Below, piece by piece: positions 27,966 through 35,086 of a DNA stretch of 64,000 bases. The stretch is from NCBI GenBank assembly GCA_963677745.1, contig OY782391.1, positions 1,120,001-1,184,000 of the forward strand, read 5' to 3'. Position numbers and translations under genes: made by a program. Each line of letters opens with the position of its first letter. Within the stretch, counting starts at the first letter, position 1. The notes beneath the pieces are model-generated. The model was given only the letters and a program-made list of their open reading frames with translations, was not told where the DNA came from and ran no database searches. This DNA is from Candidatus Altimarinota bacterium (GTDB taxonomy: Bacteria; Patescibacteriota; Gracilibacteria; UBA1369).

Positions 27966-29066
27966 TCAGTATGATTTGAAAGCTTTTTGCAGCTTTTTTC
28001 GATTGGCCCAGGCCAGTACCAGTATAATTCCCAGGTAAAGTGTTTCAGCCGGGCCGGTTTTGGCCAATTTCTTGGGAGCATCGGCGGCCGGTTTGAGTTC
28101 CTCAGTTACGGTTGTTTCCTGAGTTTCTGCAGGTTCCAGAGAGGTGATAGGCTCATTATTCTGGGCAGTCATTGTTTCATCAATGGCACTGGTCAGAACA
28201 TTTTCAGTGGTTTCGCCGGCGGCCGTTTCAGGCGTATCAGTGCCGGTTTCGGCCGGTGTTGTCAGAGTGGGACTTCCCGTCCCTACGGTTATGGAAGCTT
28301 TAAGCGCAGGATTATAGGTGGAGTAATATTCAAAAGTGCCATCCTGGTCGAACAAATAACTGAAACTCTGTCCGCTGGTAAGTACCGGGCTGGCAAAACT
28401 TTGTCCGTTGGTGGATGAGCCGATAATAGTCTGATCTTCAGTGCTGGTATTGGTCCAGACCACAGTTGCTCCTTTATCAATTTTTACTGTCGCGGGTTCA
28501 AAGCCAAACAGGGACACGTCAACATTGACGCTGGGGCCTGTACTTTGTGCAACGGTTTCGGGGGTAGTGGAAGAAGTATCGGTACTTTTTTCAGCTACTG
28601 TGGAAGTGTCAGTGTTTGTGGCGGTTTCAGTAGAGTCCAGAGAGGCTACCCCGGCTGTTGGTGTAGTCTGATTGGTTTCGCTGTTTACAGGCGTGGAGCT
28701 GAGCAGGTCGGATTTGAGTTGTAACGGTTCCTGTACCCAGTAAGCCACATATCCGGCAATGCCGACGATAACCAGTGCGGCGATAATTTTTGTCTTGGGA
28801 ATTTTGTCTTCCGATGGTTCAGTTTCTTCCGCGACTACCGCTGCAGCTTCTTCAGCTACTGTTGTTTCTGCAGCCGGGGCTGTTTCTGTCTGCACGGCTA
28901 CCTGGTCGGCGGTTTCAGCGGTTTTATGTGAAATATTCAAGGTGGTCGCCGGTGCTGCTTCCGCTGAACGCATGGTGGCTGGTCCGGTCTGTTCAAACAG
29001 ATCCATCTGATCGGGACTTACCGGTGTTTCGGTTGTCTCTTCTGGCTTGTTTTCTAGCTCGGTCAT
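27966..29066 (-). CDS. membrane-anchored cupredoxin-like protein with C-terminal LxxTG-type sorting signal
   Basis: FEPATVKIDKGATVVWTN...FDQDGTFEYYS; LAKTGP followed by TM and RKK. Start placed after TGATATACT (-) at 29096-29104. Confidence 0.8.
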   Translation of the reverse strand: MTELENKPEETTETPVSPDQMDLFEQTGPATMRSAEAAPATTLNISHKTAETADQVAVQTETAPAAETTVAEEAAAVVAEETEPSEDKIPKTKIIAALVIVGIAGYVAYWVQEPLQLKSDLLSSTPVNSETNQTTPTAGVASLDSTETATNTDTSTVAEKSTDTSSTTPETVAQSTGPSVNVDVSLFGFEPATVKIDKGATVVWTNTSTEDQTIIGSSTNGQSFASPVLTSGQSFSYLFDQDGTFEYYSTYNPALKASITVGTGSPTLTTPAETGTDTPETAAGETTENVLTSAIDETMTAQNNEPITSLEPAETQETTVTEELKPAADAPKKLAKTGPAETLYLGIILVLAWANRKKLQKAFKSY

Positions 29067-29188
29067 AGCTTTATTGGTATTTGATAAATCTTCACAGTAT
29101 ATCACAAAAACACCCCGGGATTAATGTTCCGGAGGCCTGTGCAAGCCAAAAGGACTATACAAAAAAAAGAAATGTATTGAAACTCAAA

Positions 29189-29450
29189 ATCCCTGAGTAG
29201 CAGAATCAATTTTAGGCATCAGATTGACCAAGTCCAACGGTAACCGTTTTAAAAGTTACATGCTTTCATTTTAATTGGGAAAGCAACTTTATAAATAAAG
29301 ATTGTTTTCTTTTTAAACTGAAAAATCCTGAAATTATTTCTGTACCCAGGGAAGAGGTTGCCTTTGGTCATACAGGGTTGCCTTGAGGACTGTGTGCCAA
29401 AAAAATTTTAGGCAAAAGTCACAGTCCAAAGGCAACCTTCTCCCTGTGAT
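29189..29450 (-). ncRNA. putative structured RNA unit C (diverged third unit of the array)
   Basis: 5' CAGGGAGAAGGUU arm, internal UCCCUGGGUA, 3' UACUCAGGGA; long closing stem; shares ACUUUUAA with units A and B. Confidence 0.55.
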
Positions 29451-29478
29451 AGAAACGCTGTTTTTTAATGTTCAAAAA

Positions 29479-29843
29479 ACTCCCTAAACTAACCTCAATC
29501 CCTTAAAAGTAACTTACAACCTGGAAGATTAAATTTCCTTGATAGTCACTTTTCCTTAAGCATTGCTGTTTAAGATTAGTAATTCTCTTTAATATTCTTT
29601 TCTTTTTTATCTTGCGATAAAAATCAGATTGGAACTTAAAGGTCTGTTCCGAAACTTCTCTATCCGGCTTTTGGATAACCACCGAACTGAATATTTCAGC
29701 ATTCTGAAAACCTGGTAGATTTTCAGTAACGACTTTTAAAGTAATTTTAGCTAGTTTAGGGAGAGAGTTTACACAAAATCGTATCAGCTTGATTTTGTGA
29801 AATGTTAATTCCACTTCGTTTTATGCAAACTTTCTCCCTAGAC
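29479..29843 (-). ncRNA. putative ~365-nt structured RNA unit B
   Basis: Diverged tandem copy of 29876..30250 with compensatory changes, two GCAA tetraloops and a 15-bp closing stem. Confidence 0.75.
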
Positions 29844-29875
29844 CGGTCCTCCTTTTTTTCAAGTATCAATTTAAG

Positions 29876-30250
29876 ACCCCCTAAACCAACTGTCGCCCCT
29901 TAAAAGTAGAAAGCATCTCAGAAGCGCGAAGGATCCAAGATAGAAACTTTTCCCTGAGCATTGCTGCCCAAGACTAGTAATTCTCATTAAACTTTCTTTC
30001 TTACACTTTGTCTTGCGACAAAAGTACAAGATAAAAAATCCAAAAGTTTTCCCCAAAACCTCTTTACTCGGCCTATGGATAACCACCGAACCGATAATTT
30101 TGGCATCCCAGGAACCTGGTGGACTCCTGGAAACGGCTTTCAGGTAACTTCAGCAAGTTTAGAGGGAGAGTATGGCTTCAATCGCAGGTTTGGTTTTTAT
30201 GTTTGTTTTTAAAACCGGTTTGTTATTGAAACCAAACTTTCCCCCTAAAT
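29876..30250 (-). ncRNA. putative ~375-nt structured RNA unit A
   Basis: Same evidence as unit B; lies directly downstream of a near-consensus promoter. Confidence 0.75.
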
Positions 30251-30301
30251 CTCAATTGGTTACTTGTTAGTTTTTGTCTTTATTTCAAATATCATCATAC
30301 T

Positions 30302-30330
30302 ATGATATACCATAGATTTCACCCTGTCAA
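30302..30330 (-). promoter_or_regulatory. sigma70 promoter driving the ncRNA array
   Basis: Minus strand TTGACA-17 nt-TATCAT. Confidence 0.8.
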
Positions 30331-30370
30331 GTGTCTAATCCGAAAAAAACTGAAATAGTCCAAATATAGT

Positions 30371-30399
30371 TTGAAATCTGCATTTGTTTCAGTTAAATT
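30371..30399 (+). promoter_or_regulatory. promoter of tRNA-Phe
   Basis: TTGAAA-17 nt-TAAATT. Confidence 0.65.
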
Positions 30400-30434
30400 T
30401 ATGCCGCTCACCAATCAAAACCCACCTCAATTGT

Positions 30435-30509
30435 GCCGGGGTAGCTCAGTGGTAGAGCGAAGGACTGAAAATCCTTGCGTCGCCAGTCCGATTCTGGCCC
30501 TCGGCACCA
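30435..30509 (+). tRNA. tRNA-Phe (GAA)
   Basis: Acceptor GCCGGGG/CCTCGGC plus ACCA; D arm GCTC/GAGC; anticodon arm AAGGA-CTGAAAA-TCCTT; T arm GCCAG-TCCGATT-CTGGC. Confidence 0.96.
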
Positions 30510-30612
30510 TATACTTCGTAAAATTAACTTCAAACTGGCTGATTTAAAACGTTTGAAGTCTTTATTATGTACCGGGAAAATGGTAAAATGTTAAGATCAT
30601 TTAATTATTACC

Positions 30613-31485
30613 ATGAAGCCAATTGCCAAACTTTTTCCGGGCCAACAGACTGATGACAATTCCGGAGTCCGCAGGATCAACCGCGGAAACAAAACCATCG
30701 AAGAAACCCGGCAGGGTTATGCCGACGTCATAGAATCAATGGAACGGCATGAGTTACTGGGCCCGCTGGTTCGCGGGGGATTTCATAACGGAGTCAGGCA
30801 GGAGGGATTGTTACGCCGGCTAATTTATAAGCTAAATGCCGAGCTTTATGACCGGAGATTATTGAAAGAATCTGAATATCATAATCAGGACGCCGCACTT
30901 CGTTCTCTGGAACATATTTTTGAAACCACCATGAAGGACGTGATAGCCCTTTGGGCCAGGCTTTCCGCTCAAAAAGTTGAATGGAATGAACTTTGCGCCG
31001 TTCTGGAGGATTATTTTTATGACCTGGCCAGTCTGTTTGGAGTGGAACAGCAAATGCGCTTTTTTACACGCAACTGGTTTGATACCTATGCCCGTAATGA
31101 ACTGAATGCCAGCGCACTGGCTTCCTATCAGCAGTTGTCTTATCTTGGTGCGTCCGGCAGTGTTGAAGATCAGCAGAAAATCGCCAAGGAAATTCGGGGG
31201 AACATTACCTCAATCAATAATAAGCTCAGAAATCTTCCCATAAAACCTGAACATTACCCGGCTTTCAGCAAACTAAATCCCCAGAGCAAAGTACTGATAC
31301 AGCCCGGCAATCCCTCGTCTCCCAATCCCCATCATCTGGTGGTGAGCATGAAACACGGAAGGGGGGAAACGGCCAAAACCGAAACTTATCCTTCACCCTG
31401 GGTCGAACCGCCCTTTCTGCCCAAACCGGCCGAACAGAAAAAGTCCTGGTGGGGTAAACTTTGGGGGAAACTAACCGGTAAATAA
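30613..31485 (+). CDS. hypothetical protein with C-terminal amphipathic helix
   Basis: 290-aa ORF behind TGGTAAAAT; ends KKSWWGKLWGKLTGK. Confidence 0.8.
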   Translation: MKPIAKLFPGQQTDDNSGVRRINRGNKTIEETRQGYADVIESMERHELLGPLVRGGFHNGVRQEGLLRRLIYKLNAELYDRRLLKESEYHNQDAALRSLEHIFETTMKDVIALWARLSAQKVEWNELCAVLEDYFYDLASLFGVEQQMRFFTRNWFDTYARNELNASALASYQQLSYLGASGSVEDQQKIAKEIRGNITSINNKLRNLPIKPEHYPAFSKLNPQSKVLIQPGNPSSPNPHHLVVSMKHGRGETAKTETYPSPWVEPPFLPKPAEQKKSWWGKLWGKLTGK

Positions 31486-31535: not shown

Positions 31536-31633
31536 TGTTTTTAGCTAAAATTATTATTAACTAAGCTTGCAAATTGCGCAGGCTTGAGGATAATTATGAA
31601 GCTTTTAAATTTCCATTTTATCCCGGATTACCA

Positions 31634-32260
31634 ATGCGCATCACCATCTTTGATACCGAAACCACCGGTCTGCCCAAAAGGGGAGCTGGATTGTCCGAAC
31701 AGCCCCATGTCATCCAGTTTGCCTCACAGACTTTTGAGTTTGATCCCGTCACCAGAAGATTTGTGGAAGTGGAACGTTGTAGCCAGTTAATTAAACCACC
31801 CGTACCTGTGCCGGAAGAAATTACCAGACTTTGCGGTATTACCGACCAGCAGGTCACCAATTCACCGGCCTTTGCCGAATTTGCCGACCGGATTGTGGAT
31901 ATTTTTGCCAGATCCGACCTCGCTGTTGCCCATAACCTCAGTTTCGACCGGGAAATTCTGGAATATGAATTTTCCAGAATCGGCAGAAGCAGGGACTTCC
32001 TGCCTGCCAATACTTATGACAGTCTGGAAGGGACCAGAAATCTCTGCAAATTGCCCGGAAAAAACGGCAACTATAAAGCGCCGCGACTGATGGAATTACA
32101 CCAGTTTCTGCTTAATGAAAGTTTTCAGGAGGCTCATAATGCCGAAAAAGACGTGGAGGCCCTCTCCCGCTGCGTCAAGGTGTTACTGCAACAGGGATTA
32201 TATCAACCGGTGCTGCAACAAAAGCAGGAGAGTTCCAGCGAACAGACGGCACTTTTTTGA
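31634..32260 (+). CDS. DEDDh 3'-5' exonuclease (DnaQ-like)
   Basis: IFDTETTG, VAHNLSFD, AHNAEKDV. Confidence 0.93.
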   Translation: MRITIFDTETTGLPKRGAGLSEQPHVIQFASQTFEFDPVTRRFVEVERCSQLIKPPVPVPEEITRLCGITDQQVTNSPAFAEFADRIVDIFARSDLAVAHNLSFDREILEYEFSRIGRSRDFLPANTYDSLEGTRNLCKLPGKNGNYKAPRLMELHQFLLNESFQEAHNAEKDVEALSRCVKVLLQQGLYQPVLQQKQESSSEQTALF

Positions 32261-32392: not shown

Positions 32393-35086
32393 ATGCAAAA
32401 ATCTTTTTCCATGGTAGCCAGGCTGCTCCTGATGGGGTATTTGATCGGGATTATTCCCGCTGCCGCCATCGCCCAGCAGGCCACCATTTTTTCCGATGTC
32501 ACCACGGACACACAGTACTCCGAGGCCATCAAATATCTGAAGGACAATAATGTCGTTCAGGGCTATCCGGATGGCACCTTTGCACCGGCTACCAATATCA
32601 ACCGCGCTGAGTTTACCAAGATTCTGGTGGGTGCGGTGGCGGGCAGCGACGTAAGCGGCTCCAACTGCTTCCCCGATGTCAAAGACGAATGGTTTGCTCC
32701 CTATGTCTGTACCGCCAAGAAATTGAATCTGGTGGACGGCTATCCCGACGGGACTTTCAAACCGGCCGAACCGATCAATTTTGCCGAGGCTGCCAAGATC
32801 ATCGCCAATGCTTTCCGGATTCAGCTGGGTGCTGACGATCCTTCTGCCTGGTTCAAGAAATACATAACCGCCCTGCAGATTGAAAAAGCTATCCCGCTTT
32901 CCGTCGAATATTTTGACGAAAAAATCACCCGCGACGAGATGTCCGAAATTATCTGGCGTATCAAGGCCGATAAACAGGATCTTACCAGCCGCACTTATCA
33001 GGAATTAAGCGGCGAGGGACTGGTGACAGTCGGATCCTGCCGCGAACTGGAAGACCGCATGAAAAGTGTCATGACATCCCCCTATCCAATTTTATATGAC
33101 GCGATTCCCCTGGACGGAATGGGAGCCGTAGAAGAAGCGGTACCGGCTGCCGCGCCATCTACCAGTGATTCGAAATCTTCTTCTTATACCGGCGCGGGAG
33201 CATCCGCCGATTATTCAACCACCAATATCCAGGAGGCTGGAGTTGATGAAGCCGATGTTATCAAAAACGACGGCAAATATATTTATCTGATCAAGGGCAA
33301 TACCATCCGTATAGTAAACGCCTATCCGGCTTCCGAAATGAAAGAACTGATCAGTTTTCAATTGGGGCCCCAGGATGAATATTTCTATCCCAATGAGATG
33401 TATGTGAACGGCGATACTCTGATCGCCATGGGATCGGCCAGTATCAGCTACCCGATGCCGCTTGCCGATACGACGGTCTCCTCCGATACCGTCACCAGCG
33501 ATTACAAGATGATGCCTCCTTATTATGGCGGTTCCAAATCCAAGGTCTATATCGTCAACATTGCCGACCGGATGAAACCAAAAGTGATCAGGACTATCGA
33601 TATTGACGGCAGTTACAACACTTCCCGCCGTATTGGTGACACTCTTTATCTGGTATTGAATCAATACCCTTATTTCCCTTACTGGAAAGGCAATCAGGAA
33701 ATCGCCAATTTTGCCGATTATCTGCCCAAGATGTCCGATTCCAAGGATGATAAGGTTGTACCGGTGTCCAGTTGCGATCAAATCCGACTGATGCCGAAAC
33801 CGAAGAGTTTCAACTTCTTGATTACTGCAGCTATTCCCCTTAATGATCTGAGCAAACCGGTTTCCCGCAGTGTGATCGTCGGCAGCAGCGACAACGTCTA
33901 TTCCTCAACCAGCAATTTGTATGTTGCCTCCACCGACTGGTCGGGTCCCTACTATTACAACAACAACCCTTCCACCAAGATCTACCGATTCGCTTTGTCT
34001 GCAGGCAAACTGGAATATAAGGCCGAGGGAGTGGTCCCCGGCACTGTTCTCAACCAGTTTTCCATGGATGAGCATCGCAGTAATTTCCGCATCGCCACTA
34101 CTGAAACCAGTTATGTGATGGGAGACAGCCGCACCACCAACAATCTCTTTATCCTGGGCCCGGACATGAAAATGCTGGGGAAACTGCAGGATATTGCACC
34201 GGGAGAAAAGATCTTTTCGGTACGTTTGCTGGGAGACCGCGGCTATATGGTTACCTTCAAATATGTTGATCCGCTTTTCGCCCTGGATTTGAGCAATCCT
34301 GCCAGTCCCAAGGTTCTGGGAAAACTAAAAATACCCGGCTACAGTGATTATCTGCATCCTTATGATGAAAACCATCTGATCGGTTTCGGCAAAGATGTTG
34401 ATCCGGCCGAAATAGCCAAAGACCAGGATTTCATTTATTACACGGCGGTCAGGGGTTTCAAGATGGGTTTGTTTGACGTGACTGATGCCACCAATCCCAA
34501 AGAAATGTACAGTGAAGTGATCGGGGATCAGGGGACTTATTCCGAACTTCTGTACAATCATAAAGCCCTGCTGTTCGACAAGGAAAAGAATCTGATTGCT
34601 TTCCCCATTACTGTCACCCAGATGCCGGCCGATCAACCGCAGATCTGCAAGAACTTCACCTATTCCACCTGTCCCGACAGTTGCAACAAGATTTGCCAAT
34701 CCAAATGTACCTATGAGAACGGCATAACTATTTGCGACCAGAGCTGTGACGGCGCGAACAGCTGCCAGGAGTCAAACTATGTTTATCCCAAGACGGTTTT
34801 CGATGGAGCTTATGTCTATGGATTGGATCTGGCCACCGGCTTCAAACTCAAAGGCAAAATCACCCATCTGACCACTCAGGAACAGGCCGAATTACTGGCC
34901 AACGGTTATGGCAATTGGGAAAAAACCATCCAGAGAATTATCTATATCGGCGACACGCTCTATACCGTATCCCAGGGCGCGGTCAAAGCCAACAGTCTGG
35001 CCGACTCGCTGAGGGAACTGAAGATGATCGAATTGGCCGGAACTATCTGGAATATCTCCTATGGTGTCGAGCCGATGGTTAAATAA
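32393..35086 (+). CDS. secreted protein with SLH domains and C-terminal beta-propeller
   Basis: Signal peptide; SLH motif GYPDGTF.P...INRAE; YSTTNIQEAGVDEADVIKNDG, NQFSMDE, LKIPGYSDYLHP. Confidence 0.9.
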   Translation: MQKSFSMVARLLLMGYLIGIIPAAAIAQQATIFSDVTTDTQYSEAIKYLKDNNVVQGYPDGTFAPATNINRAEFTKILVGAVAGSDVSGSNCFPDVKDEWFAPYVCTAKKLNLVDGYPDGTFKPAEPINFAEAAKIIANAFRIQLGADDPSAWFKKYITALQIEKAIPLSVEYFDEKITRDEMSEIIWRIKADKQDLTSRTYQELSGEGLVTVGSCRELEDRMKSVMTSPYPILYDAIPLDGMGAVEEAVPAAAPSTSDSKSSSYTGAGASADYSTTNIQEAGVDEADVIKNDGKYIYLIKGNTIRIVNAYPASEMKELISFQLGPQDEYFYPNEMYVNGDTLIAMGSASISYPMPLADTTVSSDTVTSDYKMMPPYYGGSKSKVYIVNIADRMKPKVIRTIDIDGSYNTSRRIGDTLYLVLNQYPYFPYWKGNQEIANFADYLPKMSDSKDDKVVPVSSCDQIRLMPKPKSFNFLITAAIPLNDLSKPVSRSVIVGSSDNVYSSTSNLYVASTDWSGPYYYNNNPSTKIYRFALSAGKLEYKAEGVVPGTVLNQFSMDEHRSNFRIATTETSYVMGDSRTTNNLFILGPDMKMLGKLQDIAPGEKIFSVRLLGDRGYMVTFKYVDPLFALDLSNPASPKVLGKLKIPGYSDYLHPYDENHLIGFGKDVDPAEIAKDQDFIYYTAVRGFKMGLFDVTDATNPKEMYSEVIGDQGTYSELLYNHKALLFDKEKNLIAFPITVTQMPADQPQICKNFTYSTCPDSCNKICQSKCTYENGITICDQSCDGANSCQESNYVYPKTVFDGAYVYGLDLATGFKLKGKITHLTTQEQAELLANGYGNWEKTIQRIIYIGDTLYTVSQGAVKANSLADSLRELKMIELAGTIWNISYGVEPMVK

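Follow-up and report, generated by a model that had tools for sequence, protein, structure and literature searches.

Tandem copies of a structured, probably new non-coding RNA beside the tRNA-Phe gene of a Patescibacteria genome

The analysis of a 64,000-nucleotide (nt) stretch of DNA from a Candidatus Altimarinota bacterium revealed two diverged direct repeats of one structured RNA. This stretch is referred to below as the window, and coordinates refer to it unless another contig or locus is named; the source genome, G000, is a single contig of 1.34 Mb. Both copies of the RNA lie on the minus strand, copy A at 29876-30260 and copy B at 29470-29850. A preliminary description, made from the letters of the window, had proposed that the pair represents an undescribed family of large structured non-coding RNA (ncRNA) in a genome of the candidate phyla radiation (CPR). 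This proposal was upheld by Rfam, covariation, coding-signal and taxon checks, and the RNA of the array is very probably a genuine new family of structured ncRNA. Taken as a whole, the data are best explained by a new family whose product is a processed, stable RNA acting in trans, and we consider this wider reading fairly probable.

Pairwise alignment and BLAST placed the tandem repeats where they had been described. Copies A and B are 71% identical over 233 nt and are the only two copies that BLAST detects in G000. Three stems had been named as covarying between the copies, and all three are present and do covary: CCAGGAG/UUCCUGG of A becomes CUGAAAA/UUUUCAG in B around the loop UCYACCAGG, UUUGUC-GCAA-GACAAA becomes UUUAUC-GCAA-GAUAAA, and CUUGGGCA-GCAA-UGCUCAGG becomes CUUAAACA-GCAA-UGCUUAAG. 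The blocks reported as invariant, GUUCGGUGGUUAUCCA, GAGAAUUACUA and ACUUUUAAGGG, consist of the same letters in A and B.

Comparison of the two copies alone already identified 13 of 87 predicted base pairs that are changed on both sides and still paired. The z-scores of their minimum free energy were -4.57 and -4.91, and none of 100 shuffled sequences folded as well. Among 11 close copies, 58 of 101 predicted pairs were compensatory. Larger alignments were made by covariance models, namely R1 (5′ half of the core, 121 positions, 11 copies), R2 (rebuilt from 35 copies) and R3 (3′ half, 173 positions). In the 5′ half, 92.1% of the cells in the alignment of 35 copies were paired, compared with 35-47% when the partners were slid; 25 of the 27 pairs were compensatory, and the observed value was not reached in any of 500 shuffles. 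The 3′ half gave a similar picture in a set of 41 rows that still includes a few antisense and duplicate rows: 90.1% of cells were paired (43-50% with slid partners) and 43 of 44 pairs were compensatory. Covariation in the larger alignments is therefore massive.

There is no coding signal in the RNA. Over ten ortholog pairs, substitutions were distributed among the three codon positions as 266/276/261 (p = 0.80), and 24 of 28 internal gaps were not multiples of three. Two kinds of short reading frame were considered and rejected, a TTG frame of 37 amino acids (aa) at 29756-29869 and short AUGAUG frames at the transcript start; neither is conserved, and G001 has a stop at the third codon. Overall, the RNA combines compensatory changes beyond both the slid and the shuffled controls with the absence of a coding signal, as is required of a structured ncRNA.

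The alignment of 35 copies also contains a tertiary contact. The loop of the first hairpin of the core, P2, has the form U-CC-NCCA-GG-U, in which N-C-C is paired to G-G-X, the three bases that open the loop of the following hairpin. One copy was ambiguous and one unreadable; in the 33 readable copies N:X was A:U in 8, G:C in 5 and C:G in 20, with no exception. A pseudoknot between GGUGG and the CYACC loop had been suggested for this region. The contact exists, as judged by covariation, and its register is slightly shifted from the one suggested (NCC:GGX). In nearly every copy one of the hairpins is capped by a GNRA loop, and the loop of another is either GCAA or UUCG. The core comprises about 270 nt with six covarying helices, the 3-bp loop-loop contact, the GNRA loop and conserved junction bases and, on this comparative sequence evidence, is a compact tertiary fold.

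No known family accounts for the RNA. With Rfam 15 at gathering score, tRNA-Phe was the only match in the whole window; HEARO, ROOL, GOLLD and raiA were among the families without a match, as were the models of OLE, T-box, riboswitches, group I and II introns and self-cleaving ribozymes. Relaxing the threshold to E = 10 over 29000-30700 gave 19 matches, of which only the tRNA was meaningful; the rest were of microRNA type and far below gathering score, the best non-tRNA match being mir-992 on the other strand (27.2 bits against a cut-off of 79). Elsewhere in G000 we found RNase P RNA at C1:405247-405740 (170.5 bits), tmRNA at C1:701797-702237 (105.7 bits) and a 6S-like RNA at C1:602254-602414 on the minus strand (41.1 bits, under the cut-off of 46.4), which is probably the 6S RNA of G000. 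Since the genome has its own copies of these RNAs at other places, the array is none of the three. A description of this RNA was not found in the literature, where catalogues in supplementary tables could hold one.

Each unit of the array consists of a leader hairpin, P0, followed by the core, which is closed by a long-range helix, P1. The features of the window are given below, together with the reduced elements of sister genera.

30435..30509, plus strand: tRNA-Phe(GAA), divergent from the array (Rfam match)
30302..30330, minus strand: sigma-70-like promoter TTGACA-17-TATCAT upstream of A, the best site in the region (11 of 12 matches)
30282..30298, minus strand: conserved transcript-start motif AUGAUGAUAUUUGAAAU, read from the sequence
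30158..30249, minus strand: leader hairpin P0 of A, in which 5′ UUUAGGGGGA pairs with UCCCUCUAAA around a variable inner hairpin (folding; a/a′ covariation)
30156..30166, minus strand: P1 5′ strand of A, CCCUCUAAACU, which shares CUCCCUA-type bases with the P0 3′ strand
29879..30154, minus strand: core of A, covered by RNA-library contigs (X8, X13, X6, X7), helices by covariation
30108-30130, minus strand: hairpin P2 of the A core, loop UCCACCAGG
30118..30120, minus strand: kissing-loop bases A-C-C of the P2 loop of A, partners G30084, G30083 and U30082
30082-30084, minus strand: GGU at the start of the loop of hairpin P3 of the A core, stem GGUUCGGU
Rest of the A core, minus strand: U-rich P4 capped by GCAA, P5 capped by GNRA (GCAA), P6 and the 3′ tail
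29877..29887, minus strand: P1 3′ strand of A, GGUUUAGGGGG
29752..29842, minus strand: leader hairpin P0 of B, UCUAGGGAGAAAG ... CUCUCUCCCUAAA
29749..29763, minus strand: P1 5′ strand of B, CUCCCUAAACUAGCU, forming 15 contiguous pairs with GGUUAGUUUAGGGAG
29482..29747, minus strand: core of B with the same helices as A (contig cover), P1 3′ strand at 29480-29494
29343..29451, minus strand: terminal P0-like hairpin CAGGGAGAAGGUUGCCUUUGG ... CCAAAGGCAACCUCUUCCCUG after the last unit, about 109 nt, near-perfect (-49.7 kcal/mol, z = -5.27)
L208:4950-5135 and L211:5000-5165, plus strand: reduced elements in sister genera

The architecture of the unit depends on three complementary segments in the order a - a′ - a: a 5′ UAGGGAG (a), an internal CUCCCUA (a′) and a second a at the 3′ end. 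The first a and a′ close the variable leader hairpin P0, the base of which is formed by 5′ UAGGGAG(A)AAGCUG and CAGCUUCCUCCCUA. Extended to CUCCCUAAGCUU, a′ pairs with the 3′ terminal GGUUUAGGGAG to form P1, so that the P1 strands are CUCCCUAAGCUU upstream of the core and UGGUUUAGGGAG at the 3′ end. P1 has 12 bp in the family consensus, is 96% paired with 2.8 pair types per pair, and is contiguous over 7-18 bp in all 37 units examined. P0 and P1 are mutually exclusive because the end of the P0 3′ strand is the start of the P1 5′ strand. All three segments have changed together in G014 (GGAAG/CUUCC) and in G022 (CAGGGAG/CUCUCUGG), which indicates that both helices are real and that both are under selection.

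In G002, G014, G024 and G020 the -10 box, followed by the motif AUGAUGAU.UUUGAAA, is again found ahead of the first unit, and it is also present in G003, a genome without the RNA. A motif of the form GA(U/A)(C/N).UU(G/U)AAA was noticed at the transcript start and again behind every unit, with the next UAGGGAG following some 25-45 nt later. Its sites in the window are at 29850-29875 and 30282-30298 on the minus strand, and it follows units in the loci L010, L011, L012 and L047; it may be a processing or start signal. The terminal hairpin has a counterpart of near-identical sequence after the array in G020, and stands alone next to tRNA-Phe in G015 and G010, both of which have no large RNA.

Searches of other genomes located the RNA in a single family of bacteria. 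BLASTN detected relatives in 8 of 61 related genomes, G000 included. With R1 the RNA was found in 27 of 36 genomes of one family (metagenome-assembled genomes labelled Peribacteria/Peregrinibacteria), representing 16 of 25 genera, and in a sample of the order 15 of the 22 family members were positive. None of 129 genomes from 18 other families of the order had a match (R1, and equally R2), nor did any of 150 other genomes of the class (R2), with the reservation that searches over more than 40 genomes use stricter filters and may lose weak relatives. Five near-complete family genomes without the RNA were still negative at E<=1, and R2 applied with filters off to six syntenic loci of RNA-negative genomes gave a best score of only 14.6 bits.

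A degenerate pattern of the RNA was then used on larger collections. It identified 55 stretches in 185,579 species genomes. Nineteen had a model match, and all nineteen were labelled Candidatus Peribacteria, Peregrinibacteria, Gracilibacteria or Patescibacteria group, which agrees with the CPR host named in the preliminary description; the other 36, from other phyla, had no model match. Metagenomes contained 83 pattern stretches, of which at least 21, among the 80 loci listed, are real. The single pattern match in viral contigs had no model match. As far as the models can see, the RNA appears confined to one Peribacteria/Peregrinibacteria family, which record labels assign to the class Gracilibacteria.

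The array usually contains two paralogous units, with a range of one to three. With R2 (E<=0.05) 32 of 46 loci were multi-copy, having two copies or, at one locus, three, at a spacing of 312-475 nt. In a tree of the 5′ halves, which is based on 121 positions and is indicative only, the upstream copies of most lineages fall into a clade that excludes the downstream ones, pointing to an ancient duplication; for G000 and its clade, both copies are placed among those of downstream type. Within the genus, the A-like copies of different species are orthologous to each other, as are the B-like copies, but their order is swapped, the A copy being upstream in G000 and the B-like copy in G002 (L010).

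The tRNA neighbour noted in the preliminary description is the tRNA-Phe gene listed above. It is divergent from the array in all ten RNA-bearing loci scanned, and is present at the syntenic locus in all six RNA-negative loci fetched. Upstream, a DEDD exonuclease is encoded in 12 genomes, and in G000 an RNase T-like gene occupies 31574-32260. The downstream side is less constant: 12 genomes have an SNase-like gene on the opposite strand and 9 have a cupredoxin-like membrane-protein gene on the same strand as the RNA. Because the downstream gene and its strand differ between lineages, the RNA is likely to act in trans and not in cis.

Three further observations concern the neighbouring genes of the window. 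The conserved gene at 27966-29105 (minus strand) encodes a 379-aa membrane protein with no Pfam match, and its ortholog in G019 has, by eye, a copper-site-like motif of cupredoxin type. The open reading frame (ORF) at 30613-31485 (plus strand), between tRNA-Phe and the RNase T-like exonuclease, encodes 290 aa and has no Pfam match. It looks like an insertion in G000, since in G002, G014, G003 and G023 no more than a few hundred bases separate exonuclease and tRNA, too few for such a gene. A second conserved neighbour, at 32393-35086 (plus strand), codes for a protein of 897 aa in which SLH and beta-propeller domains are present.

Contigs of four metatranscriptome libraries, X6-X8 from one study and X13 from another, were compared with 28900-30700. 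Contigs from all four, and so from both studies, cover the two cores, spanning 29879-30154 of A and 29482-29747 of B. They differ from the window at 0 to 23 positions, which suggests that several strains were present. On A, five contigs (0, 6, 8, 10 and 23 differences) stop at 30148-30154. On B lie X6 r4 (29483-29739, 0 differences), X7 r10 and X13 r1, and two contigs stop at 29739-29747. The furthest contig ends, 30154 in A and 29747 in B, are both 2 nt after the P1 5′ strand, though the local sequences differ; overall the contig limits are 1-7 nt past this strand in both copies. At the other side three contigs end at UUUAGG(G) inside the P1 3′ strand (29879, 29483 and 29482). No loose ends or joints are reported in these contigs, and nothing in them indicates a circular form. 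The limits hint, weakly, that the RNA is processed where the 5′ strand of P1 ends. No contig lies on the flanking coding sequence (28900-29105 and 30613-30700), the P0 hairpins, the A-B spacer or the terminal hairpin, and these gaps were not taken to indicate either silence or processing.

The following scheme of expression and maturation would fit these observations. The sigma-70-like promoter, divergent from tRNA-Phe, would drive transcription of the array of paralogous units. P1 would form on the full precursor and fix a cut 1-2 nt beyond the 3′ end of its 5′ strand, made either by self-cleavage or by a structure-specific RNase. The excised leader would then snap into P0 and free the 3′ tail of the core, leaving a core of about 265-276 nt as the stable product. 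The A and B cores may act in trans as folded RNAs, whether as a ribonucleoprotein (RNP) scaffold, a ribozyme or a homo- or hetero-oligomeric assembly. The maturation steps, namely the P1-set cut and the release of the leader as P0, are put forward tentatively, and we lean slightly against their being right in full.

Several points weigh against the proposal of a processed RNA acting in trans. Assembled contigs give neither the strand, the true ends nor the abundance of an RNA, and RNA libraries can contain DNA. P0 and P1 could be nothing more than processing stems of the kind known from rRNA operons. Nine of the 36 family genomes have no copy of the RNA, so it is not indispensable for the family. 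A partner protein or target was not found; the exonuclease, considered as a partner, was rejected, being encoded in 15 of the 36 family genomes including all nine RNA-negative ones, so that the two are not co-distributed. Exact complements (9-10-mers) of the free 3′ tail occur in G000 at chance level and in no telling place. Finally, the alignments A5, A8 and A9 were fitted to models, and their pair counts lean towards structure; the sequences are kin, and the shuffle controls overstate significance. For both reasons the pair statistics flatter the structure somewhat, and the margin is still very large.

The same contig limits could be read as the trace of a self-cleaving ribozyme, in which P1 presents the scissile bond at the junction with the core and the fold serves mainly to excise the units. 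This would be a special case of the processed trans-acting RNA, and we regard it as unlikely. The 5′ limits of the contigs do follow the end of P1 in both A (between ACUU and GCUG) and B (between GCUA and AAAU) despite the differing sequence, the units are tandem, and the kissing loop and conserved junctions recall, by analogy, the VS and glmS ribozymes. However, contig ends are weak evidence and a protein RNase would explain the same ends; none of the Rfam ribozyme models gives a match, 270 nt is a lot for an RNA that does nothing but cleave itself, and two old paralogs side by side suggest a job after processing. The exclusive pairings a:a′ and a′:a could also be the expression platform of a cis-acting leader, riboswitch or attenuator that controls read-through into the downstream gene, here the 379-aa cupredoxin-like one. 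Such a switch follows classic logic; a U-run follows the 3′ a segment in copy B of G000 and in the reduced elements of G003 and G023, and the cupredoxin-like gene is on the same strand in 9 genomes. Against this, the next gene is on the opposite strand in 12 genomes, most units have no U-tract after P1, and in the window the start of the gene is about 370 nt away from B, a distance that includes a further long hairpin. A search of the minus strand yielded no terminator. The units occur in arrays of two or three, and the cores appear as separate pieces among the RNA-library contigs. A fixed place upstream of a regulated gene together with an expression platform, the hallmark of a riboswitch or attenuator, was not seen, and a cis-regulatory role is very unlikely.

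A highly divergent form of a universal RNA is a different kind of explanation, and the RNA of the signal recognition particle (SRP) is the obvious candidate. The SRP RNA models RF00169 and RF01854 found nothing in G000 (E<=1), RF00169 found nothing in any of the 36 family genomes, and a length of about 270 nt with two adjacent hairpins in loop-loop contact is reminiscent of the Alu domain of long SRP RNAs. Yet no Ffh that could bind the array RNA is detectable in G000, the RNA contains no element like helix 8, and it exists as two paralogs. Nine family genomes and the remainder of the order do not have the array RNA, and SRP matches are just as absent there. With a distribution that does not follow the SRP gap, no SRP model match, and no Ffh or FtsY in G000, identity with SRP RNA was rejected as extremely improbable. 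That the array is a satellite or non-autonomous mobile repeat, or else an RNA carried by phages, is scarcely credible. The direct tandem arrangement with UAGGGAG at both unit ends would suit such an element, but these terminal repeats are explained by the fact that they pair and covary with the internal complement. In addition, each genome has one locus, always syntenic beside tRNA-Phe, the only viral-contig pattern match has no model match, and neither integrase nor transposase was found among the neighbouring genes scanned.

The SRP gap is an observation in its own right. The Ffh M domain (PF02978) was absent from G000, from 151 of 151 genomes of the order and from 151 of 151 genomes of a sample of the phylum, and was detected in 14 of 14 control genomes. 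TIGR00959 (ffh) found nothing in G000, and PF00448 (SRP54 GTPase) reached only 15.8 bits. Characteristic SRP-GTPase motifs were absent from all six frames of G000 read with codes 11, 25 and 4. No SRP component is therefore detectable in G000, a result that rests on independent checks; a zero for PF02978 across the phylum makes the first look of that search suspect for this family, and the wider claim is less sure than that for G000.

Large ornate bacterial ncRNAs have been described under the names OLE, GOLLD and ROOL (PMC12286853), and a further one is the raiA motif RNA (PMC12968392). These RNAs resemble the one reported here: they are several hundred nt long and multi-helix, with much covariation, loop-loop contacts and conserved junctions, they have neither a coding signal nor a known partner, and they are present in RNA libraries. 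RNAs of the OLE, GOLLD and ROOL type are reported to form homo-oligomers, and a pair of paralogs would, by analogy, fit an oligomer. GOLLD and ROOL, like the array, are found near tRNA genes. The array RNA differs from all four in having no match to their Rfam models and a narrower range of hosts, one CPR family. Its tandem old paralogs and a leader hairpin that competes with the closing helix also set it apart, and in the single viral scan it was not phage-borne.

Likenesses to better known systems are partial. In rRNA operons the 5′ and 3′ flanks pair into processing stems that are cut by RNase III. There, as here, a long-range helix joins sequence preceding the 5′ end to the 3′ end region, and one transcript contains several stable RNAs whose products are separated by hairpins. 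By the contig limits, however, only the P1 5′ strand is removed here and the 3′ strand stays on the product; the 5′ strand can refold into the leader hairpin, and the cut would be at the inner end of the helix and not in a long duplex. In the T-box a UGGN bulge pairs with the 3′ NCCA of tRNA. The kissing contact is similar in that a four-base NCCA, here in a hairpin loop, meets (U)GGX with Watson-Crick covariation of N and X. It is unlike the T-box in that both partners belong to one RNA and X is G in most copies, which no common tRNA discriminator base would match; there is no Rfam T-box match, no specifier loop and no amino-acid gene downstream. The VS ribozyme of Neurospora has a 3-bp kissing loop and is cut from multimeric transcripts, and glmS cleaves at its own 5′ edge. 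Both are large and multi-helix like the array RNA, but no homology to them was detected, size and helix order differ, and self-cleavage is hypothetical here.

The locus is retained in sister genera that do not have the RNA, with the exonuclease, tRNA-Phe, a gap and the cupredoxin-like gene in place. G003 and G023 keep the promoter, a P0-like hairpin, the 3′ a segment and a U-run around a much smaller core. The hairpin loop CUGGUCA of this reduced core is identical in the two genomes, and its stem covaries (AGAG/CUCU against AUCAAAG/CUUUGAU). G015 and G010 keep the terminal P0-like hairpin only, and G018 has about 150 nt at the locus. These reduced elements and lone hairpins indicate that the a - a′ - a frame outlives the large core.

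A new large RNA with a complex fold is a rare find, and earlier ones have proved to be ribozymes, riboswitches, partners of RNA-guided enzymes or self-assembling RNA cages. The present RNA stands out by an unusually well supported structure, a tertiary contact backed by covariation, ancient paralogs and the three-segment switch a - a′ - a. Its weaknesses are a narrow host range and the lack of a functional clue from neighbouring genes; its core of 265-276 nt is short enough for direct in vitro work. One speculative picture, which we think unlikely to be correct as it stands, is that the paralogous cores, having cut themselves or been cut at the P1-set site and being relieved of their leader by the change from P1 to P0, would assemble into a hetero-oligomeric catalytic or scaffolding particle, an RNA machine of a new class, with a housekeeping task in these apparently SRP-less reduced genomes; its members would be A-type and B-type cores here and upstream-type and downstream-type cores in other lineages. 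The CPR is a very large branch of the bacterial tree of which hardly anything has been cultured, and in genomes as small as those of its members any gene that has been kept probably matters. In sister genera, smaller cores of another kind appear to sit in the same frame, which suggests a modular mode of RNA expression and processing.

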